From contig JAGLON010000018.1 in NCBI GenBank assembly GCA_023138975.1, positions 32,381 through 96,380 of the forward strand: a stretch of 64,000 nucleotides of DNA. Direction: 5' to 3'. Below, piece after piece: positions 1-34,934 of the stretch (the stretch's first letter is position 1; every line of letters begins with the position of its first letter). The notes below the pieces were generated by a model. That model was not told where the DNA came from. It saw nothing but the letters and a program-made list of their open reading frames with translations, and did not search any database. Made by a program: the position numbers and the translations under genes. Origin of the DNA: Candidatus Zixiibacteriota bacterium. Its GTDB lineage: Bacteria; Zixibacteria; MSB-5A5; GN15; JAAZOE01.

Positions 1-3000
1 TCTCAAATTACAGTAAAGGTGGAGTTTAGTGGAACGAGCACTGATAATATATTATTGCCCACTGATAACACGGCTACTGATAATTATGACAATATGTACC
101 GTCAGGAAATAATAAATTATGATCAAATGCCTTCGGGAGTCAAAACAACTACTGGATCATCACAAGCTCTATCCACAGGGTACGATTATTTAATTATTTC
201 TGCGGATCAATACGTTAGTTATCTGACACCCTTCAGCGATTGGAAAAATTCGTTAGGTTTTTCAACGCAAATTACACCGGTTTCATCGATAGGATCAACC
301 GTTGCTCAGATTAAAGCTTACATAACACAAGAATATAATAACAATGCTATACAATATGTATTATTGGTTGGTGATGAATCCGACATACCTGCCTACACGG
401 GCTATGGATTTTTTAGTGACTACTATTACTCATTAATTGTAGGAACGGACAATTATCCGGATATAGGCATTGGTCGTATTTCGGCCACCAATAGTACTCA
501 TGTTAGCAATATGATTACCAAGAGTATAACTTATGAACAGAATCCACCGGACGGAGATTGGTTAGAAAGCGCCCTTTTGGTAGCCAATTATCAAGATGCT
601 CCAGGTAAATATCAGGGATGTAAAGAGAATATACGAACTGCGTCGGAAACTCAATCCGGGGGTTATTCAGTTCTTTATCCCAATTTCACGACCGCCTATG
701 GGGCGTCAATAGCAAATGGCGGAGATGAGGCCACTAATACGGATGTGATTAATCATATCAATTCCGGTTTCAGAGTCGTTAATTATCGCGGCCACGGTAG
801 TCAAACTACCTGGGCGTACTGGAATATATATGGTGAATATTTCGCGCCCACACAGGTTGATCTAATAAACAATAATACCAAAACCCCTGTGGTATTTAGC
901 ATCGCTTGTCTCAATTCAGAGCTACAATACGGTTCTCCTTGTTTGGCTGAGCTGTTCACAAGACCCGACGATGTGGCGGTAGCATTTCTTGGTGCCTCCG
1001 ATCCTTCATATACAACCGTTAATCATGTTTATGATGAGAGAATATTCTCGGCCATATATGATGAAGGTGTTAATGAAATCGGAAATGTCTCCAATCTGGC
1101 CGCAGTTCACATTATTAGTCAATTCGGAACCTATGGACTTACTAATGCCAGAATGTACCTATGGTTGGGTGATCCAAGTTTAGGAATTATCTATAATCCT
1201 ATATTTGCAGATACCGATGAAGACGGCATTCTTGACGATGGTGACTTCAGCGGTGTTGTCGGAGATAATCCCTGTACCGGTGGTGCTACCACAAACTGCG
1301 ATGACAACTGCCTTACCGTTGCTAATGCCGATCAGGCAGACGGCGATGGCGATGGTATCGGCGATGCCTGTGACGGACCTACACCTAATTTTGTATTTCC
1401 AAATTCATATTTTTCGAATATTGCTCCCAATATGGAAGTCTTTAGTGAATTCCCCGTAACTATGGATCCGGCATCTTTTAATACCAACACCTTTAAGGTA
1501 TTTTCACGATCCAGTGGTTTAACATCAGGAACATATGATTACAACGAATCCCTGAAATGGTACTGGTTCGGACAGGATGTAAACCATCGGGCAGGAGAAA
1601 TTGTTTCATATGTTCTCACCAGTGAAATTACAACCTCTGACGGAATTCCTATTAAACCGTTTGTCGGTACCTACATGGTTCGCACCAGCAGTGAGTCTTA
1701 TGGTACCTTGGGTGAGCATACTATCCTAACAGCAGGTAATAAACCGGTAGGTGCCTTTCCAGCCGATCTGGATGGGGATGGAGATATTGATCTTGCTGTT
1801 CCTAACCATGATTCTCATACTCTATCAATCTATATGAATGACGGTACCGGTTCTTTTGCCGGTCAGGTCAGTTATCCCGCGGGTGGCAATAATCCATGGG
1901 ATGTAACTGCTCGAGATTTCGATGGCGATGGTGACCTTGATCTCGCTACAGCAAATTACGGTACTAATAATGTCTCCGTGTATTTAAACAACGGTAGTGG
2001 AGTCTTTACCGTTTCCGCTACCTATGCCGCCGGTGATCGACCACACCCCATTCTGGCAGAAGATCTTGATGGAGACGGTGATTTTGATCTTATCGCAGCT
2101 AATTTGAATTCTGACGATATTTCCGTCTACTTCAACAATGGTGACGGTACCTTTACCGATCAACAAACAGTGTCTGTAGGTAATGGACCGATAGGCCTGG
2201 CCGGAGCTGACTATGATCGAGACGGTGATATAGACATCTTCACCGCGAATTATAGCGGTAGTACTATTGGCCTTCTTAAGAACAATGGTAATGGTACATT
2301 CGAGACAGCACAACAATTATCTATGGGTGCCAGCGGTCCCTTCAATGTTATCGCTATCGATATGAGCGGCGACGGCCTGGTCGATCTAGCAACAGCCAAT
2401 CGCGGCTCGAATGATGTTTCTGTGATTTTACAAAACTTCAGTGGTGATTTTGGTCCGGCAACGGTCTATGATGCAGGCACAGATCCATACTACGTTTGTG
2501 CTGCTGATATAGACGGTGATTGGCACGTTGATCTGATTTCTGCGAATTTGAATTCAGACGATCTATCAATCTATATGAATGACGGCAGTGGTGGCTTTGG
2601 AACTGAATCACGAATCCCTGCAGGCAACGGACCTCTCTGGGTCTGTGCGGCAGATTTCAATGCCGATGACATGATTGATATCGCTGTCGCCAATGCTTTC
2701 TCTAACAACATGTCAATCTATTATAATGCTATGGAAGGACCATTGTTAACTTCACCGAGTAACGGTTATTCAACTTATAGCCATAGCATTGGTCTCAATT
2801 GGGAAGATTTTACAGGCGCAACAAGCTATGAGGTTGTAGTCGATGGTGATCCGACATTTGGTTCTATCGATCGTCAACAAACAGGCCTAACAATTTCCCA
2901 ATGGTTGATCACACCCAATTTGGGGCACGGCAAGTTTTATTGGAAAGTCCGCGCGCAAACATCAAGCGGCCCATCCAACTGGTCCCAGGTTAGATACTTC

Positions 3001-4242
3001 ACAATTAAGAGTCGACCAACATCCTGTCCTGTACTGTTTACTCATGACGGTACTAACTTCATAAAGGACAATCCGATTCTGACAGCTTGTGAAAAATCTG
3101 GATATGTCGACATAGTAACGGATTATTACCATGTGGCACAATCGGTTGTTCCAGAAAAAGGCACCGCCACATTCCAACTCCGTGAAATGGAAGATGAAAT
3201 CACGTATCTCTATGATCTTGAATTACTGGTAGTTGACCATAGCGTCAACTCAAAAATCGCGTGTTCACCTTCCGGTGATATCACAACGTATGTGACAACA
3301 CTATTACCGACAGCAGCCATTGATAATCTTGGGCGTGATCAGATTGAAGCAATCAGCAATGAAGATGGAGTCATGTTTGAATCAAGTGAAACAGGATGGC
3401 TCGATTTGACATTCGAGACAGGTTCGGATGCGCCTTTGACAGGTGGTATTGTCCTTGACGCACCACCTAAAAAAATCTGCCTCGATCCTGATCCCAATCA
3501 CGAGAAAGCCAATCCAAACGCAGATAACACCGAAGAGAATACCGATGTCCGCGTAGAGTATAAAAATCTTGATGGCGAGTGGAAACAACTACCTTCCATA
3601 CCGCCTCGAGCTATCATCGGTCAGGATGTACTCATGGCACCGATCGAATCCAATCAGATAACGATTCGTGTATCATGGGATAAAAACTATTCTACCGATC
3701 TAATTCAATACTTTATTGTGAGTGATGAAAGTCCGGTCATAACAACTCACCGGATTAGCTATGGAACAACAACACTGAATAAAACGGCCAGAGATTGGAC
3801 TGAATTCGCAAATGATAAACCGCTGGTTCTGACCAAAGGGGACATTTTCGAATTCTCGTTCAATATTGGAACAGCCACAGATGATAATCTTACACGAGAT
3901 TATATCATTCGGGCAGTTGGCCGATATCAGCCTGATTACACAGTATTTACTAGACATGCCCCGGATATGCCGCAATTACATGGCAACTTCCCGAATCCGT
4001 TCAACCCGACAACAACAATCAGCTATGATCTATCGTCAGAAGGTGACGTACGTCTGGAAGTTTTCAACGTGCTCGGGCAGCAAGTCATTGAGCTGGTCAA
4101 TAAGTACCAGCCCCCAGGCAGCTATGATGTAACCTGGGACAGTAGAGATAATAATAATCAACCGGTTTCAAGTGGAATCTACTTCTATCGCTTATCGATT
4201 GGCGAATACAGCGAATCAAAGAAGATGTTACTCCTGAAGTAG
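1..4242 (+). CDS. Secreted multidomain peptidase: C25 (gingipain-like) catalytic domain, Asp/Cys-rich TSP3-like module, ~8 FG-GAP/VCBS repeats, Fn3-like domain, T9SS-type C-terminal sorting domain; 5' end outside window
   Basis: Frame 1 is open from nt 1, with no stop before the GTG at 19 and no signal peptide, so the N-terminus lies upstream. C25-type motifs are present: YDYLIISAD, LLVGDESDIP, NYRGHGS (His) and FSIACLNS (Cys). FG-GAP-like repeats follow the pattern DLDGDGDxDL..N..S.Y.N.G.G.F. The C-terminus reads FPNPFNPTTTISYDL...SGIYFYRL...KKMLLLK. Confidence 0.8.
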   Translation, partial: SQITVKVEFSGTSTDNILLPTDNTATDNYDNMYRQEIINYDQMPSGVKTTTGSSQALSTGYDYLIISADQYVSYLTPFSDWKNSLGFSTQITPVSSIGSTVAQIKAYITQEYNNNAIQYVLLVGDESDIPAYTGYGFFSDYYYSLIVGTDNYPDIGIGRISATNSTHVSNMITKSITYEQNPPDGDWLESALLVANYQDAPGKYQGCKENIRTASETQSGGYSVLYPNFTTAYGASIANGGDEATNTDVINHINSGFRVVNYRGHGSQTTWAYWNIYGEYFAPTQVDLINNNTKTPVVFSIACLNSELQYGSPCLAELFTRPDDVAVAFLGASDPSYTTVNHVYDERIFSAIYDEGVNEIGNVSNLAAVHIISQFGTYGLTNARMYLWLGDPSLGIIYNPIFADTDEDGILDDGDFSGVVGDNPCTGGATTNCDDNCLTVANADQADGDGDGIGDACDGPTPNFVFPNSYFSNIAPNMEVFSEFPVTMDPASFNTNTFKVFSRSSGLTSGTYDYNESLKWYWFGQDVNHRAGEIVSYVLTSEITTSDGIPIKPFVGTYMVRTSSESYGTLGEHTILTAGNKPVGAFPADLDGDGDIDLAVPNHDSHTLSIYMNDGTGSFAGQVSYPAGGNNPWDVTARDFDGDGDLDLATANYGTNNVSVYLNNGSGVFTVSATYAAGDRPHPILAEDLDGDGDFDLIAANLNSDDISVYFNNGDGTFTDQQTVSVGNGPIGLAGADYDRDGDIDIFTANYSGSTIGLLKNNGNGTFETAQQLSMGASGPFNVIAIDMSGDGLVDLATANRGSNDVSVILQNFSGDFGPATVYDAGTDPYYVCAADIDGDWHVDLISANLNSDDLSIYMNDGSGGFGTESRIPAGNGPLWVCAADFNADDMIDIAVANAFSNNMSIYYNAMEGPLLTSPSNGYSTYSHSIGLNWEDFTGATSYEVVVDGDPTFGSIDRQQTGLTISQWLITPNLGHGKFYWKVRAQTSSGPSNWSQVRYFTIKSRPTSCPVLFTHDGTNFIKDNPILTACEKSGYVDIVTDYYHVAQSVVPEKGTATFQLREMEDEITYLYDLELLVVDHSVNSKIACSPSGDITTYVTTLLPTAAIDNLGRDQIEAISNEDGVMFESSETGWLDLTFETGSDAPLTGGIVLDAPPKKICLDPDPNHEKANPNADNTEENTDVRVEYKNLDGEWKQLPSIPPRAIIGQDVLMAPIESNQITIRVSWDKNYSTDLIQYFIVSDESPVITTHRISYGTTTLNKTARDWTEFANDKPLVLTKGDIFEFSFNIGTATDDNLTRDYIIRAVGRYQPDYTVFTRHAPDMPQLHGNFPNPFNPTTTISYDLSSEGDVRLEVFNVLGQQVIELVNKYQPPGSYDVTWDSRDNNNQPVSSGIYFYRLSIGEYSESKKMLLLK

Positions 4243-5131: not shown

Positions 5132-7897
5132 ATGAAATCGGCTATCCTAGTGTTTGGATTTGTAGTTCTTTCAGTATTATGTTGTCAACAGGTGAATGCG
5201 CAGAACTGGGAAGAGTCATTGAAAACCGCTGATTCTCTTGCCGAATTGCATAACTACGATTCTGCAATTGTGGTTGGGAACCTGGCATTGATGCATGCTG
5301 AGAAAGAATTCGGCAAGGAAGATACTGTAGTTGCAAACGTATTGTGTCGCTTGGCACTTTATTATGAATCCCTACGTAAATTTGCCGAAGCTGAGCAACT
5401 AATTATACGGTCAACAAAAATAAGAGAGAATATCCTGGGATCAGATCACATAGATGTTGCAAGGCGCTTGAACTCAAGGGCGATTCTACTCTCGAGACAG
5501 GCCAAATATGCTGAAGCTGAACCGCTCTTTGCCCGGGCGTTGGCAATTAGAGAGAAGGTCTTCAGTCCGGACCATGCGGAAGTGGTGAGGAGTATCAACA
5601 ACCTAGCGATTATCTACAAGAAGCTAGGCATGTATGCCGAAGCAGAATTGCTTTATAATCAAGTACTGACAATCGCAAAACAAACACAACATCCACAAAT
5701 GGCTATGTTCCTACGTAACTTGGGGAGTCTTTTTTGGACTCAATGTAGATATCAGGAAGCTGAACCATATCTTATTCATGCATTGACCACAAATGAGAAT
5801 AATTTTGGCCTTGAGCACTGGGCAGTGGCGTCAAACTTGGGTCTACTTGCAAAATTCTACCGTGAGCAAGGCAGATATGATAAAGCCGAGCCGCTTCTCC
5901 TGCGGGCACTGGCCATAAACAAGAAGATCTTTGGTCCAGAGTACCCTGCGGTATCGGAAATCCAAAACGAACTTGCAAATCTTTATGTAGAGTTGGGCAA
6001 AAACGCAGAGGCCGAGGCACTGTATAACAAGGCACTAGCAATCAGAGAAAGAGCTCACCAGAATCACGATCTTGTTGCTGAGACTCTCGAACGAATGTCC
6101 AGGCTATGTCGTATTGAGAAGAACCAATCTGAAGCACTTGAGCTTGCCAAACGTGCCTGTCGGATAAGATTGAAGAACCTCTACGATAACATAGCCTTGA
6201 GTTCTGAAAAGGACGCTCTTGCGTTCTCTCAGAGTTCGAGAAACTCAGTAAACAACTACTTGACTTGCTTCATTGATCTTCAGCCTGCAAATGGTGCTTT
6301 CACCAAGGAAACAGCCAATATAGTCTACAGTAACAAGGGTCTTATTTCCGACGGTATATTTGAAAGGCAAAAGAGCATCGTTCGAGAGACTGATTCTGCC
6401 ACTTTGGCTCTGGCCGAGTCCTTCAAATCTACCAAATCTCAATTATCGAAGCTTTTCGTCAAGGGTCCAGGCGCGGACATACAGGTTTACCGGAAAGAAG
6501 TAGATTCGCTCGAGAGTTTCGCCATTCAATTGGAAGCCAACCTTTCACGCCGAAGCGCCAGCTTCAGACAATATAAAGATAACAGAGATATCAGCGTCAA
6601 TAGACTGGCCTCACTTCTGAGTTATAAGGATATCCTTGTTGAATATTTGAAGTATGACTACTATCAAGTCAAACCTGATAGCAGTATTCCTCGTTACTTG
6701 GCGGTTCTATTAACGAATGAAGCCAAGCCAATTATTGTCAACCTTGGCGATGCTACTGAGATTGAACAGTCAATCGACATGTATCGCAAGCATATGGCAT
6801 ATATCTCGACTGCCGGTTCAGTAGCCACTTTAGCTGACCTTGAGGACTACGGCAGGATTTCGCGCAAGCTCCATCAGCTAATCTGGCAACCGATTGAGGG
6901 GTTTATCGTCGACAAAGAACTAGCGTTGATTGCTCCTGATGCAGCCCTCAATACAATATCTTTTGCAGGTCTGGTAGGCAGCGATGAATCCTATTTGATA
7001 GAGAGTTGTGCTATCCACTATTTGTCAGCCGGGCGAGATATTATTCGTCTGAATGCTCTCTCTGAATCAGGGGTCGGGTTATTTGCTTTGGGAAACCCTG
7101 ACTATGATGCGTCAGCCTCGGATCGCTCAATAGGGCTGCCGGAGTCGGCAAGCGCTATCACGAAAATCGACTATGCTGTTAATAGAAATATTCGTTCAGG
7201 TTGTGGAGAACTTAGTGAGATCGATTTGTCTCCATTACCTGGATCCAATTTGGAAATCCAAAATATAGCAGCAATCTGGGAAGGAACAATGGATGAGCTG
7301 GCAGTCATCTGTTTAGGTAGAAACGCTACCGAAGATAGGTTTAAAGTAAATGCACCCGGCAAGCGTGTTATTCACTTGGCCACACATGGTTATTTCCTTG
7401 GGGGCGATTGTGAATTAGACATGGCGGAAAACAGATATGAATCTAAGATTAGATGGACTGGTGAGAACCCCTTACTTCATTCGGGCCTGTTTTTTGCCGG
7501 TGCTAATCATCATGGAGAGGGTGCTGATAGTGCCGGTGTCGAGGATGGGATATTGACGGCATACGAAGTCTCAGCTTTAGATTTGCTGGGAACTGAGCTT
7601 GTGGTCCTCTCGGCGTGCGAAACCGGGTTGGGGAGGATTCAGTCAGGAGAAGGCGTGTATGGTCTACGTCGTGCGTTTCAAATAGCCGGTGCCGAGACTG
7701 TAATAAGTACTCTGTGGTCTGTGTCTGATCAGATGGCCGCAGAGATGTCGAGCAAGCTTTATGACAGAAAGGGCGTGTCTCTACCAGATACGATTCGACG
7801 AATCCAACTAGAAAAGATTGATGAACTGCGGCGACAGAATAAAGTCGATCACCCGATAAGTTGGGGCGCTCTGGTTGCGTACGGCAATTGGCGCTAA
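5132..7897 (+). CDS. Exported TPR-repeat CHAT-domain (caspase-fold) protease, copy 1
   Basis: The signal peptide reads MKSAILVFGFVVLSVLCCQQVNAQ. Multiple TPR_12-like repeats follow the pattern AEAEPL..RALAI.EK..G..HP.VA..LNNLA.LY. The CHAT dyad is intact: IHLATHGY (His codon 7385-7387) and LVVLSACETGLG (Cys codon 7616-7618). Confidence 0.85.
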   Translation: MKSAILVFGFVVLSVLCCQQVNAQNWEESLKTADSLAELHNYDSAIVVGNLALMHAEKEFGKEDTVVANVLCRLALYYESLRKFAEAEQLIIRSTKIRENILGSDHIDVARRLNSRAILLSRQAKYAEAEPLFARALAIREKVFSPDHAEVVRSINNLAIIYKKLGMYAEAELLYNQVLTIAKQTQHPQMAMFLRNLGSLFWTQCRYQEAEPYLIHALTTNENNFGLEHWAVASNLGLLAKFYREQGRYDKAEPLLLRALAINKKIFGPEYPAVSEIQNELANLYVELGKNAEAEALYNKALAIRERAHQNHDLVAETLERMSRLCRIEKNQSEALELAKRACRIRLKNLYDNIALSSEKDALAFSQSSRNSVNNYLTCFIDLQPANGAFTKETANIVYSNKGLISDGIFERQKSIVRETDSATLALAESFKSTKSQLSKLFVKGPGADIQVYRKEVDSLESFAIQLEANLSRRSASFRQYKDNRDISVNRLASLLSYKDILVEYLKYDYYQVKPDSSIPRYLAVLLTNEAKPIIVNLGDATEIEQSIDMYRKHMAYISTAGSVATLADLEDYGRISRKLHQLIWQPIEGFIVDKELALIAPDAALNTISFAGLVGSDESYLIESCAIHYLSAGRDIIRLNALSESGVGLFALGNPDYDASASDRSIGLPESASAITKIDYAVNRNIRSGCGELSEIDLSPLPGSNLEIQNIAAIWEGTMDELAVICLGRNATEDRFKVNAPGKRVIHLATHGYFLGGDCELDMAENRYESKIRWTGENPLLHSGLFFAGANHHGEGADSAGVEDGILTAYEVSALDLLGTELVVLSACETGLGRIQSGEGVYGLRRAFQIAGAETVISTLWSVSDQMAAEMSSKLYDRKGVSLPDTIRRIQLEKIDELRRQNKVDHPISWGALVAYGNWR

Positions 7898-7925
7898 GAC
7901 TGTACTGGAAAAGGCACCTGCATCA

Positions 7926-8612
7926 CTACGGATCTATTTTAAAAGTATATTTAAGCTTACAGGTTGTTGAATTAGAGCCAGCGCAGGTGACAATCAAGTG
8001 ATATGAACCGGGCTTCATCACCCGGTTAGGGATAATAATCTGCCCCATGCCGCGCTCATCAATCGAGCCAAAAGAGTCCAAGCGCACTACTTCTCCACCT
8101 CGATCGTCGATAACCAATAAGTCATAGAGTCTGCCGGGTGAGTAGTCGGGAACCGCAAAACTTATCGCGGCATCCAGGCCTGCCCCAATAGAGAGCACAT
8201 TAGTTGCAGTAGCGCGGGTTGGTATGAGACGTATCATCTGTACTGGTCGAACATCTCCGGTATCCCCAATCATTACACGCAATCCTATTAGAGTTGGAAT
8301 GACCATCAGGAGTACAAGCAACAGACAGATAGCTGGCTTGAAAACCAAAGGAGCGTCCGGCCACAGATACCGGATCAGTGTCTTCGTTGAAGTAATACTC
8401 TGAGTGGGCTGGGCATGTCGAGCCATTGCCTTTTTTATCTTCGAGCTGTTACGAAGCACTCCTGCATACTTTTCAAATGCGACTACTTCGTTCAGACAGT
8501 GCTCGCATTGCATCAGATGAATCTCCAGACGCTTCTCATCTTCGTCAGAAAGCGCACCCAGTTCATAGGCCGGCAACAGAGCACCCAGATTCTTGTCGGT
8601 GCAGTTTGTCAT
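7926..8612 (-). CDS. Single-pass zf-HC2 anti-sigma factor with extracytoplasmic beta-rich domain, copy 1
   Basis: The zinc-finger motif is HLMQCEHCLNEV and the TM segment is AICLLLVLLMVIPTLIGL. I prefer the start at 8612 (MTNCTDKNLGALLPAYELG). It makes an ATGA overlap with the sigma stop and aligns with the paralogue MKTACVDKSIGSLIHAYELG. Confidence 0.75.
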   Translation of the reverse strand: MTNCTDKNLGALLPAYELGALSDEDEKRLEIHLMQCEHCLNEVVAFEKYAGVLRNSSKIKKAMARHAQPTQSITSTKTLIRYLWPDAPLVFKPAICLLLVLLMVIPTLIGLRVMIGDTGDVRPVQMIRLIPTRATATNVLSIGAGLDAAISFAVPDYSPGRLYDLLVIDDRGGEVVRLDSFGSIDERGMGQIIIPNRVMKPGSYHLIVTCAGSNSTTCKLKYTFKIDP

Positions 8613-9148
8613 ACCTTGTACCCTCCCAGGCTCAGGCATTTTCTGAGCATCGTCCGGCCGCGGTGGAGCAATACATGGCAGTTGCTATTGGAAATAGTCA
8701 TGATTCGGCATATTTCCAAAGTCTTGTACCCTTGGTAAACCAGGCTTAAAACTTGAGCAAACCTGCTGTTCTCGGTTGTTATTTTCTCCAGGCAATTCAG
8801 AATGCTAGCCTCCAAATCGGGATCGACATCCTTGGCTCGAATGTTCTGAAAGTCATTAACGGACTGCTCCGAGGTAATCCGCTTGTTTTCGACCGATGTG
8901 CGACGAAAGTAGCTCTTGATGTTGATCTGCAGCACCCCCCATGCCCATTCATCGAAGCCTACGGTGAAAGTCTCTGCCTTGTATTTTTCAAGTACAGTTA
9001 TACAGGAGTCTTGCACAACATCTTCTGCAGCTTCCCTATCCCTGATTCTATGTGTCGCAAAAAGACTAAATCTTACATGCAGATATTGAAAAATCTTTTT
9101 CTCGGCTGTTTTGTCGCCGTCTCTGGCTTGTTGCAGTAATTGTTTCAT
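8609..9148 (-). CDS. ECF-type sigma-70 family factor, copy 1
   Basis: 179 aa. The region 2-like segment is AAEDVVQDSCITVLEKY...FDEWAWGVL and the region 4 HTH is VYQGYKTLEICRIMTISNSNCHVLLHRGRTMLRKCL. It is a clear paralogue of 25975-26502. Confidence 0.85.
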   Translation of the reverse strand: MKQLLQQARDGDKTAEKKIFQYLHVRFSLFATHRIRDREAAEDVVQDSCITVLEKYKAETFTVGFDEWAWGVLQINIKSYFRRTSVENKRITSEQSVNDFQNIRAKDVDPDLEASILNCLEKITTENSRFAQVLSLVYQGYKTLEICRIMTISNSNCHVLLHRGRTMLRKCLSLGGYKV

Positions 9149-9645
9149 GTTGCTCGATATCGCTCCTACGCCGGAGTTTACGCGCTGAATGCTGGCTGGA
9201 ATAAGACACTCACGAGCCTAAACAACCCTCTACCCTGACCATATATCATTGAAAGACCCACTAAATATAGACCTTGAACCCGATATGTACAATCAAAAGT
9301 TTCATTATATCTGTAAGAATCGGCACCCCTATCACCACACTATACTGTGTGAGTGAGCGTCTCGGAAGAGAACGCCCGAGAACGAACACCCTAATTGGAG
9401 AGGATGCTAAGGACCGTGTCCTGAGTAATAGACTAGCCGACTTATGAATTATGGAAATGGATTGTTTTCACACATATGCATAACTCACGCTTTACCGCCT
9501 AACGGAGATAATAATTAAATTGATGCGCAGTTCGTACAGGATTTTTTGAATATGAGCTAGAATAAGGGAGGGCATCCTATGTAAAAAATAGTCTTTGGAT
9601 AAAAAACGTTCAATTAGAAAATTAAACTAACCAACTGGAGGTTCT

Positions 9646-12264
9646 ATGCGAAAGATAATAGACAAAACTTGTTTAGGAATTGTCCTAATAACAATATTTT
9701 CCCTTTGTTTATTGTTACCGGCTATTGGTCATGCCAATGCACCCGAGGACCCTGTCGTCCAGGAAGAATTATACCAACCTGGTATGGTATTAATTCAATT
9801 ATCCTCATCTGCGATTAATTCTATTGGATATACTATGAGATCTGGAGCTCAATCTGCCACACAGACAGGATTGGTAGACGTTGATGTATTATTACAGGCT
9901 CAAGGTTTAGCTGAGGTTAGCCTTCCATCAGTTCAACCAGCTAATATCGAATTGGCTGCTCAAATGGGACTGGATAGGAGAATTAGGTGTAAAGTTAGTA
10001 CATCTACCGATATTGAATCATTGGCTTCAGATTTAGTTTTACTGGCAGATGTTGAGTCGGCTTCTCCGAATTGGCGACTAGATTTAATGACTGTTCCAAA
10101 TGACCCCTTATATCCACTACAATGGGGCCATGACAATCAAGGACAAATGAATGATTGTGGGTGTGATTGCACTGGCATAGGGACTAAATATTGCTGTGAG
10201 CATGAAAATGGTAGTCCGGTAGGTTCAATTGGTTCAGATGCCGATGTCGATATGGCATGGACTGCGATGGGGTCCTTTGGAGATGAAAACATTATCATCG
10301 CCATTCTTGATACTGGTACCGACCCTCATATCGATCTCAGATTGGTTCCCGGGTGGAATGTGGCCGACAATAATTCCAACACTTCTGATATTCGAGGTCA
10401 TGGCACGGCTACGGCTGGAATTACAGCCGCCATTGCAGATAACAATCGGGGTGTTGCCGGGGTTGCGGGCGGCTGTTCGGTAATGCCTGTTCGCGTTATG
10501 AGTCAATCTGGGGGTTTATTTGCTTCATATATCGCTGATGGAATGATTTATGCTGCAGATAATGGTGCTCATGTTATTTCTATGAGTGTTGGTGGACCTT
10601 ACAGTTCAGAATTTGACTTCGCTTCAAATTATGCATATAACTCAGGCGTATCCTTATTTGCCTCTGCGGGAAATTCTAACTGCAATGGGCTCAGCTACCC
10701 CGCGGGATGCACAAATGTTATTGCGGTTGGTGCAGCAAGTCCTTGTGGCGAGAGAAAAAGATCCAGTAGTATTGTTTCCTGCTTAAGTGGGGGTGTTTGC
10801 GCTGATAATCTCAGTACTTCATGCGATGGAGAACATTGGTGGGGAAGTACTTATGGAAGCGGTTTAGATATTATCGCTCCTACTATATTGCCAACCACTG
10901 CCAGATCAGAAACTCTAGAACGCATCATTCCATCCGGTCCTGAAGAACATTATTCTATGTGGTTTAATGGGACATCATGTTCTTGCCCGTTTGCGGCAGG
11001 AATTGCTGGCCTATTGTTATCTATTGACCCATCGTTAACTCCTGCGCAAGTAAAGCAATTAATAATTGATGGAGCAAATGATGTAACAACTGGTCATGCA
11101 ACAGTGGGTTATGATATTTATACTGGCTATGGAATGGTCAATGCTTTTAACTCAGTAATTGCATTGGCTCTTGATACCGATGAAGACGGCATACTTGATG
11201 ATGGCGACTTTTCGGGTGATCCGAACGACAATCCTTGTACGGGAGGAGTAATCGCCAATTGTGATGATAATTGTGTAGACGATTATAATCCAAATCAGGA
11301 AGATACTGATTGGGACGGTATCGGCGATGAATGTGATAGTTGTCCTGGCTCTCCGCATCAGTGTGGCTCGTGTTATATCCCCCACATACCAGGTGACGTA
11401 AACATGGATGGGGATGTCGACATACTTGATATCGTATATCTAATAAATTTCAAGTACAAAGACGGACCGCCACCAGAACCCTATGAAATAGAGGGCGATT
11501 TTAATTGTGATACACTAGTAAACATTATAGATATTACTATTCTAATTGATTATAAATATAAGGGAGGTGCTGCACCTCAAGATTGCTGTCCTCAGAGTGT
11601 TTTGCTAGAACCGACGCCAATTTTCTTAAAGGTCAAACTTGCGATTATAGAGGCTTCTATCACAGAAAAGTATGACGGCAACACCACTACTATCATGCTT
11701 AATTCTGAGATTGACTTGCAGGGTCTTGAGCTTCGAATCAATTGTGATGAAGGAGCTACAATCACCAACCTGACACCAGATCTCCAACTCTTTGCCTCTG
11801 AAACAGATGGCCAGCGCCAAATTGGGCTGCTCGACACGAAAAACAATGGCTACTTGGCAACCGGGCTCAATTCGGTTATTAAAGTAACCGGTAAGGCTCA
11901 AATTACAGAAGCGATTGGTGTGAACAAGGAAGGAACTGGAGTGGGTATCAAGATCAAAAACGCAGAGAAGGAAGCGATGCTGCCCACAGCTTTTGCCCTC
12001 CATGACTGCTACCCTAACCCGTTCAATCCCGTAACTACTATCAGCTACGACCTACAGGATGCGGTGAACGTAAAATTGGTAGTCTACAATGTCATCGGAC
12101 AGCGCGTCGCGACTCTTGTTAATGAATACCAAGCGGCTGGTAGCTATCAGGTTGACTGGAATAGCAGAAACAAAAGCGGCCAAACTGTCGCCAGTGGAAT
12201 CTATGTCTATCGCTTGACCGCAGGTGAGTTTGTCGAGACGAAAAGAATGATGTTACTGAAATAG
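9646..12264 (+). CDS. Secreted subtilisin-like S8 serine peptidase with TSP3-like module, dockerin-like repeats and T9SS-type C-terminal sorting domain
   Basis: It has a signal peptide and the triad motifs AILDTGTD (Asp), GHGTATAG (His) and NGTSCSCPFAAG (Ser). The dockerin/EF-hand-like pair reads GDVNMDGDVDILDIVYLINFKYK...GDFNCDTLVNIIDITILIDYKYK. The tail reads YPNPFNPVTTISYDL...SGIYVYRL...KRMMLLK. Confidence 0.85.
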   Translation: MRKIIDKTCLGIVLITIFSLCLLLPAIGHANAPEDPVVQEELYQPGMVLIQLSSSAINSIGYTMRSGAQSATQTGLVDVDVLLQAQGLAEVSLPSVQPANIELAAQMGLDRRIRCKVSTSTDIESLASDLVLLADVESASPNWRLDLMTVPNDPLYPLQWGHDNQGQMNDCGCDCTGIGTKYCCEHENGSPVGSIGSDADVDMAWTAMGSFGDENIIIAILDTGTDPHIDLRLVPGWNVADNNSNTSDIRGHGTATAGITAAIADNNRGVAGVAGGCSVMPVRVMSQSGGLFASYIADGMIYAADNGAHVISMSVGGPYSSEFDFASNYAYNSGVSLFASAGNSNCNGLSYPAGCTNVIAVGAASPCGERKRSSSIVSCLSGGVCADNLSTSCDGEHWWGSTYGSGLDIIAPTILPTTARSETLERIIPSGPEEHYSMWFNGTSCSCPFAAGIAGLLLSIDPSLTPAQVKQLIIDGANDVTTGHATVGYDIYTGYGMVNAFNSVIALALDTDEDGILDDGDFSGDPNDNPCTGGVIANCDDNCVDDYNPNQEDTDWDGIGDECDSCPGSPHQCGSCYIPHIPGDVNMDGDVDILDIVYLINFKYKDGPPPEPYEIEGDFNCDTLVNIIDITILIDYKYKGGAAPQDCCPQSVLLEPTPIFLKVKLAIIEASITEKYDGNTTTIMLNSEIDLQGLELRINCDEGATITNLTPDLQLFASETDGQRQIGLLDTKNNGYLATGLNSVIKVTGKAQITEAIGVNKEGTGVGIKIKNAEKEAMLPTAFALHDCYPNPFNPVTTISYDLQDAVNVKLVVYNVIGQRVATLVNEYQAAGSYQVDWNSRNKSGQTVASGIYVYRLTAGEFVETKRMMLLK

Positions 12265-12804: not shown

Positions 12805-15800
12805 CTATTCACTACTATTTCGCCACGGACCATACACAGGAGAATAGGGTGTGTTTTCGTAACCAGCCGGTATATTGTAATTTAGCCATGTGCCAGTTGA
12901 AAGTTGTCTCCCTGTATCAACTCTGATTATTAGAGCTTGACCATGCTTTGATAGCATATATCTTTGACCATAGGGTGTGCCACCCAAATCTATTGCTGAA
13001 TGCGACTGACCTTCGAATATTACTCTTTTGGCACCCTTTGGTAATCCTGAGTTTTCTAAATCCAATGCAAAATCATGACATGAGTAATTTTCTTTTGCAT
13101 CTGCTATGATTACTTCAATTTCAGCATCAGTCATACCGAAGTTTTCTTTAAGTTGCCTTCTTAAATCATCGTGATTACCTTCAATGCCTTCAGCATCAGT
13201 TCCATAGGCGCCTTCTCCAAGTTTCTTATTTGTTAAGATCTTGCCGTATGCCGTATATGCATAGTGAGTCATTAGACCACTGGCAAAACCAGTATGTCCA
13301 CCAATGACTACTCCTCTAATACTGCCTTCACTTATACCCCCTTGGACAGCACCTCCTATAAATGCGGAACTTAACGGATCTGAATCCAAATAAAAGCCCC
13401 ATGCTGATCCTGCAGCGCCCCCAGCCAACGAAGACCAAAATTGACGTCCACCAATCTTCTGTTCGTTCATAACTTGACTTGATGCAGTTGATACTCCTGC
13501 TGAAACAGTAGAACTTATCATAGCATGTGCTCCCGTCCCTGGAGTAGAGGTCCAACCGCCAATCATACCTCCTGTATTATAGCCTAGCCATGCGGCCGCA
13601 GCAGCCTTTCCTCCAGCTTCAACAGCTTCCCATCCCCACTCTCCTGTCTGAATACCGTGAGTAATGTATCCGACGGTGAAACTGACAGCTGCAACAATCA
13701 AATCGTCAATACCAAACCAATAACCGTTTGGATCAACTCCAATAGTTGGGTTATTTCCGGCAAATAAATATCTACTGACGTATTGACCGGCTTTATCAGT
13801 TGAGACAAACTGTCCTGTTTCCGCATTATAAAAACGGGCGCCAAAACAGTACAAATCAAACGATGATTCACCATCCATTTCTTTATCGGTGTATGTATAT
13901 CGCGGATGATAATTGCCTATTGAATGAACAACTTTTGCGAATGGATTATAGTCAATACTCTGAACTACGGATGGATCAAAGCTAAATCTTCCAGACATAG
14001 CCATTCTTTCAGATTGTTGGTGGTCCATAAAGTGATAGTATAAGTGGTTGTCGCTATTATACCGGTATGTGGCAATTCTTCCTGGAAGCCCATTGATATA
14101 ATATTCCTCGACAATATCTCCTTTTTTAAAAGTTGCTACCACCTTTCCCATATCATACAAGTAGTAAATTTCGGTATTTACGTTTTTAATGCAAGATTTC
14201 TTCTCATGACCAGCACTTTCTTCCTGACTCAATTCTGTTTGATCTTTGGTATCAATTCCTGGTTTTATTGTGTTTGATTTTCCACCACCAATTTCAATTT
14301 CATAGGGATCCGGTGGATCGCAATCAACCTGGATTTGATAAGCATAACGCTTAACAATTCTTCTTTCTGCTTCGTCATACTTAAAGTATAGAGTATCGAG
14401 CCGACCATTATACAGGCTCGGATCTAGTGCCGATTCAGTCATAAGATCACGGTAGTCAAATTTTATCTGGTATATACCGCTTTTGGGATCACTCAACAAA
14501 TTACCTACTTCATCATAATGAAGGAATTGACCCAAATTACAACCAGTATATATAGCCAACTTAGAGGAATTAGGCCAATAAGTATACTCTGATGAAACCG
14601 TATTCTCAACTTTACTCATTCGCATACCTAGGGCATTGTAATTGTACTCACAGTTTCTCCAGGTATCTACAACATGATCGGCATTTGTCATCCAGCCGAG
14701 TTCATTATACGAATACTGATACCCATGATTGCGTACCGCTCCAGAGATCGATGTGCTTGATTCTATTGAACTCACTCTCCCATTATGATGCGCAGAGGGA
14801 TCAGAATCTCCAAAGTCCATTGATTGGGCAAAATGAAGAGTATCAGATCCACATCCGGCCAACGTAGTAGCAATATTGCTCAGATCATTTATAGAAGTGA
14901 GGTATGAACGGGAGTTATACTCGTATGAAAATGGTTGTAACGTATCAATATCGTAAACACCAGGCGATACATATTTCTTGTGAAGCCCGAAATTGATAGT
15001 TGTTGGATTAGATGCAGCATTATACAAGTATTGGGCATAGACCTGTCTCGAGCTTCCTGTAATATCACCATTACTAAGCTCGTACAGGCGACCCATTTGA
15101 TCATAGTTCAACTCCGTTTTCCGCTTTCCGGTTGTACTCGGATATCTGGGGTAGAATGTATTACTTACAATATCTCCTCGTATGTTATAAGAATGCCCTA
15201 CCGCCTTCCGGTAGTATAAATTCGGCAGTTTGGTTATAACTAAGTCCGAGTCGTTGGCAGGGAAGCGTATAAATTCACGGTAATATGTACTGTTACCATT
15301 TTCAACCCTAACTAATCTTCCAGGTGCAAGGAGAGTATCATTCATGCTTGTAACGAAATAATCGAAAGTGAACTTAAATTTCACAATTGGATTATGTGAC
15401 GATTGCGGAAAATATCTGTTTTCAGCACGTGCTTTTGTAAAATACACATCTGCCGAACCCATTACGCCTTCTTCAGTTCCCCTCCCATTTCGGTCGTACT
15501 TCATATAGGTGAACTCATTATTGACCAATTGCTTATCATTCTGAGTAAACCGCACGCTTCCATTCCTATCGTAGAGAATACGAATAGTACCATAATCTCG
15601 GTTCCAGGTACTATCTGTATAATCCAATTGATTGAAATAATTCTTTTGTATTTCAACAGCACTTGTACTTGAAAGAGTATCGATTACAATCAATGTATCT
15701 CGACCTCGCAGGTCGGCATAACTTGTTCTAATTGATGTGCGAGGTGTGCTGTTTACTGAGTAATGAACAACTGCTTGAGAGAAATCACCCCATCTGTTGA

Positions 15801-18800
15801 ATCGATTTTCAGCTATTACATTATCAGCATCAATTGTCGAATCAACTATAAGTTCTTGTCCAACATCGACTCTGTGCCCGAATCTCTTAACGCGTTCAGA
15901 AGACAAACTCCAGTCATTCCCGGGATTGGCAGCAGAATCTACGCGAGAATTATACTCTTTAGAATAGGCTAATTCTGCATAAGGGTATTGACCACAATCA
16001 GCACCTGGTCCAGATGCACTGTAGTATTGTGTAGCTTCTGCATGTGCTTGAATTTCATTACTGTAATCCATTAATCCATTTGGTGCTATTTGATCAACAA
16101 AGGGAAGGTAATTTCGGATTACTCGTCCTCTTGCATCTATTTGTCTAGTATCCCCAACTATTACAGAACCACTACCATCTTCACTCTCTTGAATGCGAGT
16201 TTGAACGATTTGTCCCAAACCATCTGAAAACGTTACGCTGGTGGTAGAATCAACATCAGACCTGAACTTTATTGATTTATTCCAGTTTAATCCCGCTGAA
16301 GTTAATACAGTTGAGTATTCAGTCCTGGACAGGACATTTCCTCGATGATTATAGGTAACGCTATCTCTACCAAAAGTATCGGATTTTGAGATAATAGGGA
16401 GATTGTCTGTTCCGGCAATGGCTACACTCCGTCCCGTAACCGGATCGAAGACTGTAGTATTGATTGCGGCATCAAGCGGATGGAATCTGAAATCATCAAA
16501 ATATGCCCAGGCATCCAGTACATCCGTCATGGCTACTCTGAACTGAAAATCGTCCAGCAAATAGGCAACAGATGAAATATCAAAAACACCTTCCACTCTT
16601 GTCCATTCTGTGCTACTAACTTCCGTAAATTTAATAGAGTTATTGGGAATTGAAATGGGATTGTCATACATGTCCCATCCAAAACAAAAGACGACTATAG
16701 TATCTGTCGCTTTCACCCATCCCGAAAAATAGTATCGTGTATCCGTAAGACTATCCGCACTAAAATTTCTTTTAGGTCCCCAATTATAATCATTGCTACC
16801 ACTATTGTCTCTGACTCTAAAGCAATACTTACCTGTGAACGCGTCATCGTCTATGATTTGATGATGATAATCATCAAGCATGACCCAACTATCCCATCCA
16901 TATCCTTGTTCGAAGTCCTGTACCAAGAAATCATTGGGATAGCAATTTACTGCACGGGCCACGATCATTAGTCCATCTTTCCCCAGTTTAACACAAGAGC
17001 TATCGCCCTCACCGTTGACCGAAGAAACCATACTTCCGAATTCATTAAAGCTTTCTCCATTAGGCAACACTTCTTGAATAATCACTTTACCGGTTTCTGT
17101 ATCCTGGTCTTCCCATGTATACGATTGAATTGCCCCCCATGTACCATTCAAGGCAAAATCGACACCATCTTTATTCAGTACTGTTGCAACGCCATCATTA
17201 TCAAGGAAATTAATTCTTTTGGCTACCAATGTGATGGCATTGTCATCTGCTAAGCCAGAATATGCAGGCAAATCAGCAGCATAAACTATCGAATCTACCA
17301 TGAATGAATTGTTGAACTTATATTTTGTCCTAGTTGATACAAGCCGCCCCTTGTCATTCTCGTGCAAATACTTCACATCATTAGCAATAAGGTCTTGCCT
17401 TGTATGGACCGAATCCAATTGTACCCTGTACACACAATCAGGATAGTTAGGCGGTTGATATACTGAATAGTAATTTCGTGTCGTGTCGTTACAAACAGAT
17501 GCATTATCACCTGTCGTAAAGGTGTAATTCAGGTACTCTAAACCATCCAGAAAATACCCGCCGTCTTGTAGTCCATATGTTATTGAGTTTTCTAAATCCG
17601 GGAATGTAAATCCCGGAATTCCGGACACGCTAAAAGTATTATCATCTACGTCATTGTAATAACAATGGACCTCATATCCTTCAGGAGAGCTCTCAGTAGT
17701 GAATGGAAGGGAAACGGTTGATCTTGCAAATCGAGGAATTGAAGTCGACTCATCAAGTATTCCACCAAAATAACTGAAGTTAACCCTGACGGGAGCAGTG
17801 TCATACTGAGTCTCATACGATAGCAAATAATCTACAACCGGATAGGCAGCTTTGCCTGAGAATTGAGTACCGTATTTTCTAAAACAATAGTGTTTAGTTT
17901 CTGAGGAAAGCTTCTGAGCAATATAGAAACTTGAGGGCGTAGAAAAAGCAAGAAAGTGTTGTGTGCTTCCTGGAGTGTCCATTACACTGGAAAGATCATT
18001 AGTGACCCAGGCCCCATTTTCCCAAGTATAAAGCATAGCATGTTTGTTACTATTATCCATGGCCAGGATGTAATTATCTTGTACAGTAAATGCCATGGAA
18101 TTAGGGTATCCATCAGCAGGGTCATCGACATCTTCATCGTCATTTCCGACATATGCTTCTGACAGGAGAGTTGTTGTTGCACTCCATGTAGTATTATTAA
18201 TAAGTCTTTTTGCTTTAAGAACACCTTGTGGTGACATTGTCACTATGAGATTATCCAATACGCGAATTTCACTTTCATCTGGTACTGAGCCAAAATCAGT
18301 TACAACCCATTGAGAGGTTCCCGTCCATTGCCATATTTGAAGTGAATTGTAATGTCTGGTAATTACCAAATTTTGTGAAGACATCATGGTTTCGTAGAAC
18401 TCTGATCCACTATAGTCATCTCCCACATATCGAGCTGGGGTTCGGACCCAACCATTTGCTCCTCTAATCGCTGAGAAAGCATATGCCTTTTTCCAATATG
18501 GGGTCACCGTGTAATCCATTTTATAACGTTCCCAGAATATAGCATTGTCAGTTAACACTCTACCCAATGGTGCTGTTACAGAGTCTACCCAACCGCCTCC
18601 ATGTCTAATAAATGTATCAACCGGATCTGGATGAAGCCATGCAGAACCACTCCAGTCAGCTATTCCAAGGCTGGTATAAATATATGAGGGACTAAAATAC
18701 TCATTTTCAATTGGCCATGCACAGTATTCGCTGGTTTGCGTGGCTCTGGCGCGGCCATCAAATTGCAATAAAGAGGATTCCAACCCTGAGGCAAAGCTTA

Positions 18801-20661: not shown

Positions 20662-20832
20662 TTAACTCCCAACAACCAACACATCAAGATATTACTCAGG
20701 GATAGAGCGCCAAGCATGACATTCTAAGGCATCGAATTTGTCAATCCGATGCCTTTTCAATTTAGTGAATATTATTGTGCCAGAACATCATAACACTACT
20801 TGGTGTCCTTCTCAATAATACATTCCGAAGAT

Positions 20833-21138
20833 CTAACGATTGCCATCGTCGATGGGCTCTTCATGTGGAATTGGCCAATCCATCCATTTTGGTGGACAGG
20901 TAGAACAATATGTATAATACCCGCACTTGCTACCATCTTCAAAATATCCCCGCCAATATTGTACAATCACACCATCTGGTCCACGAGGACAGACACAAGG
21001 CGTGCTGGTGAAGACATATGTTGGTTGATAAACAGGGCACCATAATGCTTGTGCATCATTCGGGGTAACAAGAGTAATACCGACTCCAAGTGATAATGCA
21101 AAAGCAAATGTTGCTAGGGCAACCACAAATTTTCTCAT
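20833..21138 (-). CDS. Small secreted Cys-rich protein (6 Cys in ~70-aa mature part)
   Basis: The signal peptide reads MRKFVVALATFAFALSLGVGITLVTPNDAQA. The mature part contains WCP, PCVCP, KCG and YCSTCP. A good RBS (AAGGAG) lies 8 nt upstream. Confidence 0.6.
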   Translation of the reverse strand: MRKFVVALATFAFALSLGVGITLVTPNDAQALWCPVYQPTYVFTSTPCVCPRGPDGVIVQYWRGYFEDGSKCGYYTYCSTCPPKWMDWPIPHEEPIDDGNR

Positions 21139-21182
21139 AGACTCACTCCTTTTCTAATTTTTGGTTATATTTTAAGTAATAA

Positions 21183-31504: not shown

Positions 31505-31507
31505 CGA

Positions 31508-33448: not shown

Positions 33449-33462
33449 ATCCCTCCGGCATG

Positions 33463-34887: not shown

Positions 34888-34906
34888 GATTACCTCAAAT
34901 GGTGCT

Positions 34907-34934
34907 TTGCAAATGCAATCTTAATATGTATAAT
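34907..34934 (+). promoter_or_regulatory. Near-consensus sigma70 promoter for the platform/peptidase genes in the divergent intergenic region
   Basis: TTGCAA (34907-34912), a 16-nt spacer, then TATAAT (34929-34934), 35 nt upstream of the ATG at 34969. Confidence 0.5.

Follow-up and report, generated by a model that had tools for sequence, protein, structure and literature searches.

What would join a sigma factor of the extracytoplasmic function (ECF) type, its anti-sigma factor and a signal-peptide-bearing protease of the caspase fold, twice in one genome, and what would such a set of genes do? The question is raised by a 64,000-nt stretch of contig JAGLON010000018.1 (positions 32,381 to 96,380 of the forward strand; assembly GCA_023138975.1) from a Candidatus Zixiibacteriota bacterium, which we refer to throughout as the window. 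Two copies of a trio are found there, each with an ECF-type sigma factor, a zf-HC2 anti-sigma factor and a protein in which tetratricopeptide repeats (TPR) precede a CHAT protease domain (copy 1 and copy 2; Table 1). A preliminary description made from the sequence alone had proposed that the three genes are functionally coupled, with the CHAT protein either cutting the anti-sigma factor or acting as an ECF-controlled effector, and had offered a suicide module as a further option. Here we report that the trio recurs well outside this genome, that its genes are highly probably coupled in function, and that the best reading of the module is a conserved envelope-signalling system of the Fibrobacterota-Chlorobiota-Bacteroidota (FCB) group, which would be a split counterpart of the DdvS/DdvA system of Myxococcus xanthus.

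Conservation and inheritance of the module

An exhaustive profile search with the anti-sigma factor over 1.84 billion representative proteins showed, at E <= 1e-30, that its family numbers at least 299 clusters (50% identity). Among the 150 best-scoring clusters nearly all proteins are 220-235 aa long and match from end to end, so the anti-sigma factors of the window belong to a coherent and sizeable family and are no one-off. Gene neighbourhoods were inspected for homologues from 83% down to 29% identity, giving 15 informative loci and three more that were too short to judge; pattern-based locus scans yielded two genome and six metagenome loci, with one spurious match to a histidine kinase (L013 in our numbering of loci). 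A TPR-CHAT gene adjoins the anti-sigma gene in 12 of the 15 informative loci, even where anti-sigma identity is as low as 29-37%. These are both copies in the window and L001, L002, L004, L005, L006, L011, L012, L018, L019 and L021. The CHAT gene is convergent and lies 30-50 nt past the anti-sigma gene in L001, L002 and L004, is co-directional with it in L005, L006, L011, L018, L019 and L021, and stands two genes upstream, co-directionally, in L012. The CHAT protein and the anti-sigma factor are products of separate genes in all 12 loci. The loci come from Zixibacteria and, in the case of L006, from an Ignavibacteriales metagenome-assembled genome (MAG), so the module extends beyond Zixibacteria. 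Two of the copy-1 proteins, the anti-sigma factor and CHAT, have identical counterparts in a MAG of candidate division Zixibacteria. Conservation of the trio outside this genome had been set beforehand as a check, and the adjacency in these 12 loci supplies it; the same synteny backs the functional coupling put forward in the preliminary description, and at the level of the module we regard coupling of sigma factor, anti-sigma factor and CHAT protein as highly probable.

A fourth gene accompanies the trio. Divergent from sigma stands, in seven loci, a gene for a large protein that carries a C-terminal domain (CTD) of the type IX secretion system (T9SS) behind a variable head: an S8 peptidase in copy 1, S8 with FG-GAP repeats in L018, Peptidase_C25 with FG-GAP repeats in L021, a beta-helix in L001, FG-GAP repeats in L002 and L004, and a head of unknown type in L019. 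In L009 a sulfatase occupies the same position. The working unit is of four genes, namely the cargo gene and, divergently from it, the genes for sigma, anti-sigma and CHAT. The T9SS cargo gene is its putative regulated output, and the S8 peptidase is likely to be the regulated cargo of copy 1.

Pairwise identity matrices were compared for the sigma factor, the N-terminal and C-terminal halves of the anti-sigma factor, the TPR region and the CHAT domain, and all of them correlate with one another (Mantel r 0.56-0.83, P <= 0.01). Such co-divergence is what co-inheritance leads one to expect and is by itself no proof of physical interaction. The CHAT domains fall into two clean clades. Clade A comprises copy 1, L001, L002 and L004, in all of which the CHAT gene is convergent and hence on the strand opposite to the anti-sigma gene; clade B comprises copy 2, L005, L006, L018, L019 and L021, and here the CHAT gene is co-directional throughout. 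In its CHAT domain copy 2 shares 44-53% identity with the clade-B domains found elsewhere (L005, L006, L018, L019 and L021) but only 32% with that of copy 1. Since each CHAT protein is closer to clade members in other organisms, the two copies represent two old module types that reside in one genome, and no recent duplication. The earlier statement that the genes were "retained together through duplication" is thus misleading, the copies belonging to anciently separated clades with closer relatives elsewhere.

Architecture of the trios and their proteins

Our open reading frame (ORF) map reproduces exactly the coordinates that the preliminary description gave for both trios. Read directly from the sequence, an ATGA stop/start overlap couples sigma and anti-sigma in both copies, and in copy 1 the CHAT gene converges on the anti-sigma gene across 28 nt (7898-7925), both features having been described before for copy 1; the quoted motifs HLATHG and LSACETG, the leader ends of the form CCQQ..AQ and the N-terminal strings are all present in the translations. 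In copy 2 the whole trio lies on the minus strand, with the CHAT gene co-directional with the sigma/anti-sigma pair across a 178-nt gap. The mechanical ORF of the copy-1 anti-sigma factor reaches 8639; we took the Met at 8612 as its start because orthologue alignments begin there and the ATGA overlap fits. The pairwise paralogy claimed for all three proteins is borne out by identities between copies of 30% for CHAT (E 6e-124), 31% for anti-sigma (E 4e-34, over the full length) and 40% for sigma (E 2e-46). Profile searches in Pfam agree with the earlier domain calls, matching CHAT, TPR_12, zf-HC2 and the ECF sigma domains, with zf-HC2 of copy 2 below the gathering score.

The copy-1 CHAT protein begins with a signal-peptide-like N-terminus (residues 1-23), continues with about eight TPR pairs and a helical middle, and has its CHAT domain at residues 576-919; the Pfam matches in copies 1 and 2 have E-values of 2e-55 and 1e-66 for CHAT and 2e-59 and 2e-70 for TPR_12. 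Its catalytic residues His752 (in HLATHG, nt 7385-7387) and Cys829 (in LSACETG, nt 7616-7618) are invariant in 24 homologues of 31-81% identity, and this invariance, together with the surrounding motifs, argues that catalysis is under selection and that the enzyme is putatively active. An AlphaFold2 (AF2) model of the protein (pLDDT 81, pTM 0.77) has as its best full-length Foldseek matches Csx29 (8eey_B, E 3e-14, TMt 0.58), DdvA (8rw5/8rot, E 6e-14 to 1e-12) and separase (9hma), and the predicted structure is of the TPR-superhelix-on-CHAT type that these proteins have in common. When a profile of the CHAT domain was run against the whole PDB, Csx29 and DdvA were the sole matches, each at E ~0.002; PDB searches with the full-length protein or a full-length profile were swamped by TPR matches to kinesin light chains, and a single-sequence search with the CHAT domain gave no match.

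Despite their divergence, all nine CHAT orthologues examined, and three further ones, have a signal-peptide-like N-terminus as judged by eye, in which a short positive stretch is followed by a 12- to 18-residue hydrophobic run and then by a cleavage-like site of small residues, which reads ..VNA/QN in copy 1 and ..TEA/QN in copy 2 (the slash marks the site). In Bacteroidota, proteins cut by signal peptidase I typically carry Gln at +1. That the CHAT protein is exported, as the preliminary description had assumed, and by way of a Sec signal peptide, is probable on the strength of these conserved leaders. Pfam detected no T9SS C-terminal domain in the CHAT proteins, so they should stay in the periplasm. 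A lipoprotein was considered and dropped as the default reading; Cys residues do end the hydrophobic region, but the residue at -1 is Leu, which makes the lipobox non-canonical.

The anti-sigma factor of copy 1 matches zf-HC2 at E 1.7e-6 and that of copy 2 at E 1.2e-3, and the zinc-type site of copy 1, formed by C4, H32, C36 and C39 (Cys followed by H-x3-C-x2-C), is kept as CHCC in copy 2. On domain and CHCC signature both are classed as putative class I zinc-binding anti-sigma (ZAS) factors. Invariant across 28 diverse family members are C4, H32, C36, C39, P93, R133, Y163 and G202, of which R133 sits in a loop of the outer domain in the AF2 model. That model, for copy 1, has N-terminal helices, a long helix (about residues 89-115, nt ~8268-8348) that covers the hydrophobic segment, a linker of about eight residues and an eight-stranded beta-sandwich at residues 124-227, and so predicts a single-pass protein with an extracytoplasmic C-terminal domain of some 105 residues. 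The family profile matches the RslA-type chain 3hug_B and, weakly, RsiW in the PDB. Translational coupling and co-divergence suggest that the protein putatively binds and inhibits its cognate sigma factor. Foldseek returned generic Ig-like and cupredoxin-like matches and no specific one; since the outer domain is a generic beta-sandwich without a specific structural match, the anti-sigma factor alone is a poor candidate for the sensor and is unlikely to sense by itself.

Both sigma factors match Sigma70_ECF, Sigma70_r2 (E 4e-10 in copy 2) and Sigma70_r4_2 in Pfam and exceed the cut-off of 42.9 bits of the NCBIfam ECF superfamily model TIGR02937 (44.9 bits in copy 1, 63.8 bits in copy 2), and we assign them by these domain matches as predicted ECF (group IV) sigma-70 factors; no specific NCBIfam subfamily model reached its cut-off for either. 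A profile of the sigma family matched full-length SigW best in the PDB and also full-length SigH and RpoE chains, and a single sigma sequence found no match there. All 15 sigma orthologues share four cysteines without exception (C49, C119, C147 and C171, numbered as in copy 1), which is unusual for ECF sigma factors; these residues may form a metal or redox site in the sigma factor itself.

Comparison with known systems

According to the preliminary description, no characterised ECF pathway uses a CHAT protease. That statement is outdated, given DdvS/DdvA (PMC11506125) and Csx29/Csx30/CASP-sigma (PMC10028731). A full-text literature search found one system that combines a periplasmic TPR-CHAT protein with a sigma factor, DdvS/DdvA of M. 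xanthus. DdvA is a single chain in which a CHCC zinc anti-sigma domain in the cytoplasm is joined, through a transmembrane helix and a linker of about 50 residues, to a periplasmic scaffold with TPR-CHAT; its authors propose that a signal induces CHAT cleavage at the linker, followed by RseP, and they report fused homologues from Myxococcota and one Comamonas only (PMC11506125). The module described here shares with DdvS/DdvA (PDB 8rot, 8rw5; PMC11506125, PMC6061681) an ECF sigma factor co-transcribed with a single-pass anti-sigma factor that has a CHCC cytoplasmic domain, and a TPR-CHAT of the separase/craspase type with a His/Cys dyad on the periplasmic side (here predicted). It differs in that the TPR-CHAT protein is the product of its own gene and has its own signal peptide, and cleavage would therefore hit a separate protein rather than take place within a dimer of the same protein. 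The outer part of the anti-sigma factor is a small beta-sandwich behind a linker of about eight residues in place of about 50. The neighbours and probable regulon consist of T9SS cargo, whereas DdvA controls a CBASS/CRISPR island, and the organisms are Zixibacteria and Ignavibacteriales instead of Myxococcota.

In craspase, Csx29 cleaves Csx30, which binds and inhibits the ECF-like CASP-sigma, and experiments have demonstrated this cut (PMC10028731). Among TPR-CHAT proteases that act on the inhibitor of an ECF-like sigma factor, Csx29 stands alone in having its cleavage demonstrated, and it is also the best full-length structural match of the CHAT protein here. The differences are that craspase is cytoplasmic and activated by RNA-guided Cas7-11, whereas the CHAT protein here has a signal peptide, and that Csx30 is soluble and no ZAS anti-sigma factor. 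No Cas7-11 or CRISPR genes are present among the window ORFs examined, where the large ORFs encode the C25 peptidase and a DUF6443 protein, no dedicated search for CRISPR arrays having been run. The classical systems RseA/DegS/RseP of E. coli and RsiW/PrsW/RasP of B. subtilis resemble the proposed pathway in that a single-pass anti-sigma factor is cut outside by a signal-activated protease and then within the membrane, but their site-1 enzymes are the serine protease DegS and the membrane metalloprotease PrsW, not a caspase-fold cysteine protease, and these are as a rule not encoded beside the sigma factor. ECF54, an actinobacterial group without an anti-sigma factor, has carboxypeptidase, subtilase and CHAT genes in its context and has been proposed to be under proteolytic control (PMC8999054; PMC7826278). 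It is like the present module in that CHAT-domain and subtilase genes stand beside an ECF sigma factor; by its description it is set apart, since a ZAS anti-sigma factor is always present here and the taxa belong to the FCB group.

A CHAT protease that controls an ECF sigma factor through its inhibitor is thus already known. New elements here are the split architecture, the range of taxa, the association with T9SS cargo and a motif embedded in the sigma coding sequence (see below). A literature search for the CHAT domain together with type IX secretion found no paper. If the split form is real across hundreds of clusters in Zixibacteria and their relatives, control of ECF sigma factors by caspase-fold proteins would be far broader than thought, and it would serve ordinary envelope and secretion physiology, including T9SS proteases and adhesins, beyond phage defence. 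With protease and substrate encoded as two proteins, the proposed cleavage can here be tested directly in vitro; for DdvA this step is still unproven (PMC11506125).

Proposed mechanism and alternatives

In the pathway that we propose, the ECF sigma factor would be held at the membrane by the single-pass CHCC zinc anti-sigma factor, the outer part of which is the beta-sandwich of about 105 residues, and the separately encoded TPR-CHAT cysteine protease would be exported by its Sec signal peptide to the same compartment. There it would sense a signal via its TPR superhelix and make a site-1-like cut in the extracytoplasmic part of the anti-sigma factor, its putative substrate. The cut would open the anti-sigma factor to intramembrane proteolysis by a site-2 protease presumed to act next, and the sigma factor, once released, would drive its own operon and, in most loci, the divergent gene for a large T9SS-secreted protein (the S8 peptidase in copy 1).

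We favour this site-1-like role, one of the two options of the preliminary description and still the best reading, because of the adjacency of the genes, the invariant dyad, the conserved leaders, the plain outer domain of the anti-sigma factor and the absence of the sigma-associated motif, at scores >= 15-17 bits, upstream of the clade-A CHAT genes. The fusion of CHAT and anti-sigma in one lineage (DdvA) and their separation in another argue, moreover, that the two act together. That the exported CHAT protein is both the sensor and a site-1-like protease on the anti-sigma factor is a serious possibility, which we hold tentatively. Several observations weigh against it. No CHAT gene stands next to the sigma/anti-sigma pair in L008, in L020 and, probably, in L009 as far as its contig reaches; the anti-sigma family is far outnumbered by the TPR-CHAT family, and two of four distant CHAT homologues sampled (L015 and L017) have no sigma gene nearby. 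In sequence, the CHAT domain resembles DdvA only marginally (E 0.002). The linker between membrane and sandwich is so much shorter than that of DdvA that the geometry of cleavage would need to differ. Finally, the clade-B CHAT gene is probably co-transcribed with sigma, which equally suits a role as output.

The last point leads to a rival explanation in which CHAT is an output or accessory, made with or under the sigma factor and acting on other periplasmic substrates, for example in maturing, trimming or quality control of T9SS cargo, with the anti-sigma factor inactivated in some other way. The CHAT gene is co-directional with the anti-sigma gene in eight loci (copy 2, L005, L006, L011, L012, L018, L019 and L021), and in seven of the eight it lies directly 10-180 nt downstream, and so is probably part of the sigma operon. 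T9SS-CTD proteins, C25 and S8 peptidases among them, are constant neighbours, and TPR-CHAT homologues also exist with no sigma gene nearby. On the other hand, the clade-A CHAT genes are convergent and, as set out below, have no motif upstream at scores >= 15-17 bits; the type of cargo varies (S8, C25, beta-helix, FG-GAP, sulfatase) while CHAT is conserved, which ill fits a dedicated maturase; and the DdvA fusion ties TPR-CHAT specifically to an anti-sigma factor. Taken together, we consider the output role rather unlikely.

The TPR-CHAT protein could also be a non-cleaving partner or co-sensor, RseB-like or securin-like, whose TPR groove would shield the beta-sandwich from another site-1 protease and whose own proteolysis would be used for autoprocessing or on some other target. 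TPR arrays serve to bind proteins, the bulky TPR-CHAT of DdvA has been proposed from its structure to block RseP sterically (PMC11506125), and the short linker makes a juxtamembrane cut by a large protease awkward. With the dyad and its surrounding motifs invariant in 24 homologues, and with no other site-1 protease conserved in the loci inspected, we judge such a partner to be distinctly unlikely and return to CHAT as the putative site-1-like protease.

Abortive infection, the suicide option of the preliminary description, would have the caspase-like protease kill the cell or activate defence genes, by analogy with the CBASS/CRISPR genes under DdvA or with craspase; both characterised CHAT-sigma systems, DdvA and Csx29, do serve phage defence (PMC11506125, PMC10028731). 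A gene with a PRTase-CE domain lies upstream of the CHAT-less sigma/anti-sigma pair of L008 (785-1606), a weak hint and the only defence-flavoured neighbour seen; the PRTase-CE domain occurs in some defence-system contexts. Against these, a PADLOC scan of the six trio proteins and a 187-aa neighbour of copy 2 gave nothing meaningful, the conserved neighbours are T9SS-secreted hydrolases and adhesins with no defence genes among them, and the protease is predicted to be exported, away from cytoplasmic targets. The suicide module is therefore unsupported, and we rate a defence function as very improbable.

A conserved motif at the sigma genes

A bipartite motif, T(G/A)T(T/G)(T/G)(G/T)-N14/15-(A)T-TCTTAC-A, is present upstream of the sigma gene, on the sense strand and in the same orientation, in 13 of the 15 sigma orthologues; the distance from its 3' end to the start codon is 82-243 nt, and ~80-165 nt if one of the 13 loci is set aside. 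The scoring position weight matrix (PWM) was built from nine sites, and the four sites found afterwards in L018-L021 served as a test set. The site upstream of sigma copy 1 scores highest in the window, with 21.6-23.4 bits according to the version of the matrix used, and shuffled windows give ~0.2 matches at >= 17 bits. It is a candidate ECF-dependent (autoregulatory) promoter or operator, and the motif spacer of 14-15 nt falls within the 14-17 nt given for ECF promoters (PMC6061681). The motif scan gave no sense site upstream of sigma copy 2. Between the motif and the start of sigma copy 1 lies a candidate sigma-70-like hexamer pair, which by eye appears to be conserved in L001. A strict sigma-70 consensus scan confirmed such pairs in five of 15 sigma upstream regions and two of five CHAT upstream regions, and the assignment of housekeeping promoters to the sigma and CHAT genes is tentative.

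The same matrix bears on how the CHAT gene is controlled. Whole-locus scans found no motif upstream of the clade-A CHAT genes, copy 1 included, at PWM scores >= 15-17 bits, lower thresholds not having been scanned there, and the only other element in these upstream regions is a weak sigma-70-like hexamer pair. On these two grounds we read clade-A CHAT as a constitutively made sensor rather than an output, and the alternative in the preliminary description, CHAT as an ECF-controlled effector, is weakened for copy 1.

High scores are also obtained on the antisense strand inside the sigma coding sequences, at a fixed position around codons 24-34, where the site is the reverse complement of the codons for a conserved ..VRF...A..R (..VRF...A..H/R for copy 1). 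Both copies in the window have it, copy 2 with P = 0.003 against a synonymous-codon null, and it recurs in L005, L006, L008, L009, L010, L018, L019 and L020. Codon use at the site is peculiar, Val being nearly always GTA and Arg nearly always AGA, even in GC-rich loci (GTA AGA TTY for VRF). When synonymous codons were resampled within each of 16 sigma genes, the antisense score averaged 5.0 bits as opposed to 14.0 bits observed; 14 of the 16 genes gave P <= 0.1, and the Fisher combined P of 8e-17 is somewhat inflated by the non-independence of close orthologues. The antisense site is thus maintained by codon choice, well past what the encoded residues require. Both exceptions among the 16 genes carry ARF in place of VRF. 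One of them, L004, lacks the intragenic site and has an intergenic antisense copy that overlaps the sense copy at 8098-8130 as an inverted pair, TCTGTAAGA-N8-TCTTACAGA; from this arrangement it would seem that the locus needs an antisense copy at one place or another.

The antisense site points to the divergent cargo gene, at a distance of 264-882 nt from the cargo start over eight measured loci, seven of which fall within 264-567 nt. We prefer to read both sites as putative promoters for this sigma factor, one serving its own operon and the other the cargo gene or an antisense feedback transcript. Alternatively, a different DNA-binding protein may use the pair as operators and form a loop, as happens in gal. 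Pairing at the RNA level between the upstream motif and its intragenic complement was also considered and is deemed unlikely, because the sigma-70-like hexamers lie downstream of the upstream motif, which would leave the motif outside that mRNA, and because the fixed spacing of 14-15 nt suits a promoter better; neither argument is decisive. If the antisense motif, as a putative promoter, is functional, it would be an unusual regulatory site, kept by codon choice inside the regulator's own gene, and regulator and target promoter would be inherited as one piece of DNA. The composite proposal, a widespread trans-envelope pathway of FCB bacteria in which a free periplasmic caspase-fold site-1 protease acts together with an antisense copy of the target promoter in the sigma gene, driving cargo or an antisense feedback transcript, is as a whole doubtful.

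Two further sites in the window, TATTAC-N14-TCTTACA at 21835-21861(+) and 34765-34791(+), are exact copies of TTATTACGGAA-N9-TTCTTACA in the geometry of the sigma motif, with 0.07 expected by chance. The latter lies within the 5' coding end of the gene for the type II secretion system (T2SS)-type ATPase and points to the divergent T2SSF gene, the same layout as that of the antisense site in sigma. The former is located between CHAT copy 2 and the ORF of 187 aa, is followed by a hairpin and T-run at ~21889-21918, and may give a short transcript.

Genomic context

The features of both copies are collected in Table 1.

Table 1. Coordinates in the window of the two trios, the motif sites and the principal neighbouring genes.
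Feature	Position	Strand	Details and basis
TPR-CHAT copy 1	5132-7897	+	921 aa; ORF map and Pfam
Anti-sigma factor copy 1	7926-8612	-	228 aa; ORF map and Pfam
ECF-type sigma factor copy 1	8609-9148	-	179 aa; ORF map and Pfam
Antisense motif in sigma copy 1	9051-9078	+	PWM 17-18 bits; codons ~24-33; points toward the S8 gene
Sigma-70-like hexamer pair TGTACA-16-TATATT	9264-9291	-	between motif and sigma copy-1 start; consensus scan, weak
Upstream motif TGTGGT-N15-TCTTACAG	9311-9339	-	sense, 162-191 nt upstream of sigma copy-1 start; PWM
S8 subtilase	9646-12264	+	872 aa; dockerin and predicted T9SS C-terminal sorting domain; divergent from sigma copy 1; Pfam
TPR-CHAT copy 2	22087-25110	-	1007 aa; ORF map and Pfam
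Anti-sigma factor copy 2	25289-25978	-	229 aa; ORF map and Pfam
ECF-type sigma factor copy 2	25975-26502	-	175 aa, TTG start; ORF map and Pfam
Antisense motif in sigma copy 2	26405-26432	+	PWM 18.6-19.2 bits; same codon position
Three N_methyl pilin-like genes	26617-27923		copy-2 cluster
Secretin	31508-33448		copy-2 cluster
Secretion ATPase	33463-34887		copy-2 cluster
T2SSF	34969-36165		copy-2 cluster
Prepilin peptidase	36178-36798		copy-2 cluster

The divergent S8 peptidase mentioned in the preliminary description was found across 497 nt of intergenic sequence from sigma copy 1. In Pfam it matches Peptidase_S8 (E 8e-41), FlgD_ig (37.2 bits, above the cut-off) and, at its extreme C-terminus, Por_Secre_tail with 25.8 bits, just under the cut-off of 27; from this domain content we count it as predicted T9SS cargo. 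A second large protease gene lies upstream of CHAT copy 1, at 19-4242(+), and encodes a 1407-aa Peptidase_C25 protein of the gingipain family with FG-GAP repeats and a T9SS sorting domain. C25 peptidases flank the module in L004 as well (13152-15698), and in L021 (1-4658) one is the divergent cargo.

A type II secretion or type IV pilus-like cluster (26617-36798) has copy 2 at its downstream end, the last pilin-like gene being separated from sigma copy 2 by 114 nt. On the same strand downstream of CHAT copy 2, at 12805-21746(-), follow the 187-aa ORF, which has no family match, and a 2618-aa protein with DUF6443 as its sole Pfam match; the two may be the copy-2 counterpart of the regulated cargo.

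Among the more distant CHAT homologues, that of the Krumholzibacteria MAG contig JAPLKY010000206 (L014, 1-9543) is found where a sigma-like gene is followed by the gene of a 318-aa single-pass protein that lacks a zinc motif, by two TPR-CHAT genes in tandem and then by a T9SS-CTD protein, a layout analogous to the module from non-homologous parts. In L016 (8095-13045) tandem TPR-CHAT genes stand beside a CHASE2-SpoIIE phosphatase and beside a convergently oriented operon that encodes an ECF sigma factor, a 258-aa protein and a PrsW protease, the three genes of this operon lying ~3 kb away from CHAT. The proteins just downstream of CHAT in L016 and L017 (8785-9236) share an N-terminal segment that is FecR-like by eye. 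The remainder of the window, from 37121 to 64000, carries motility and chemotaxis genes, including those for FapA, CheW, a GAF histidine kinase, FlhA (FHIPEP) and the hook protein FlgE.

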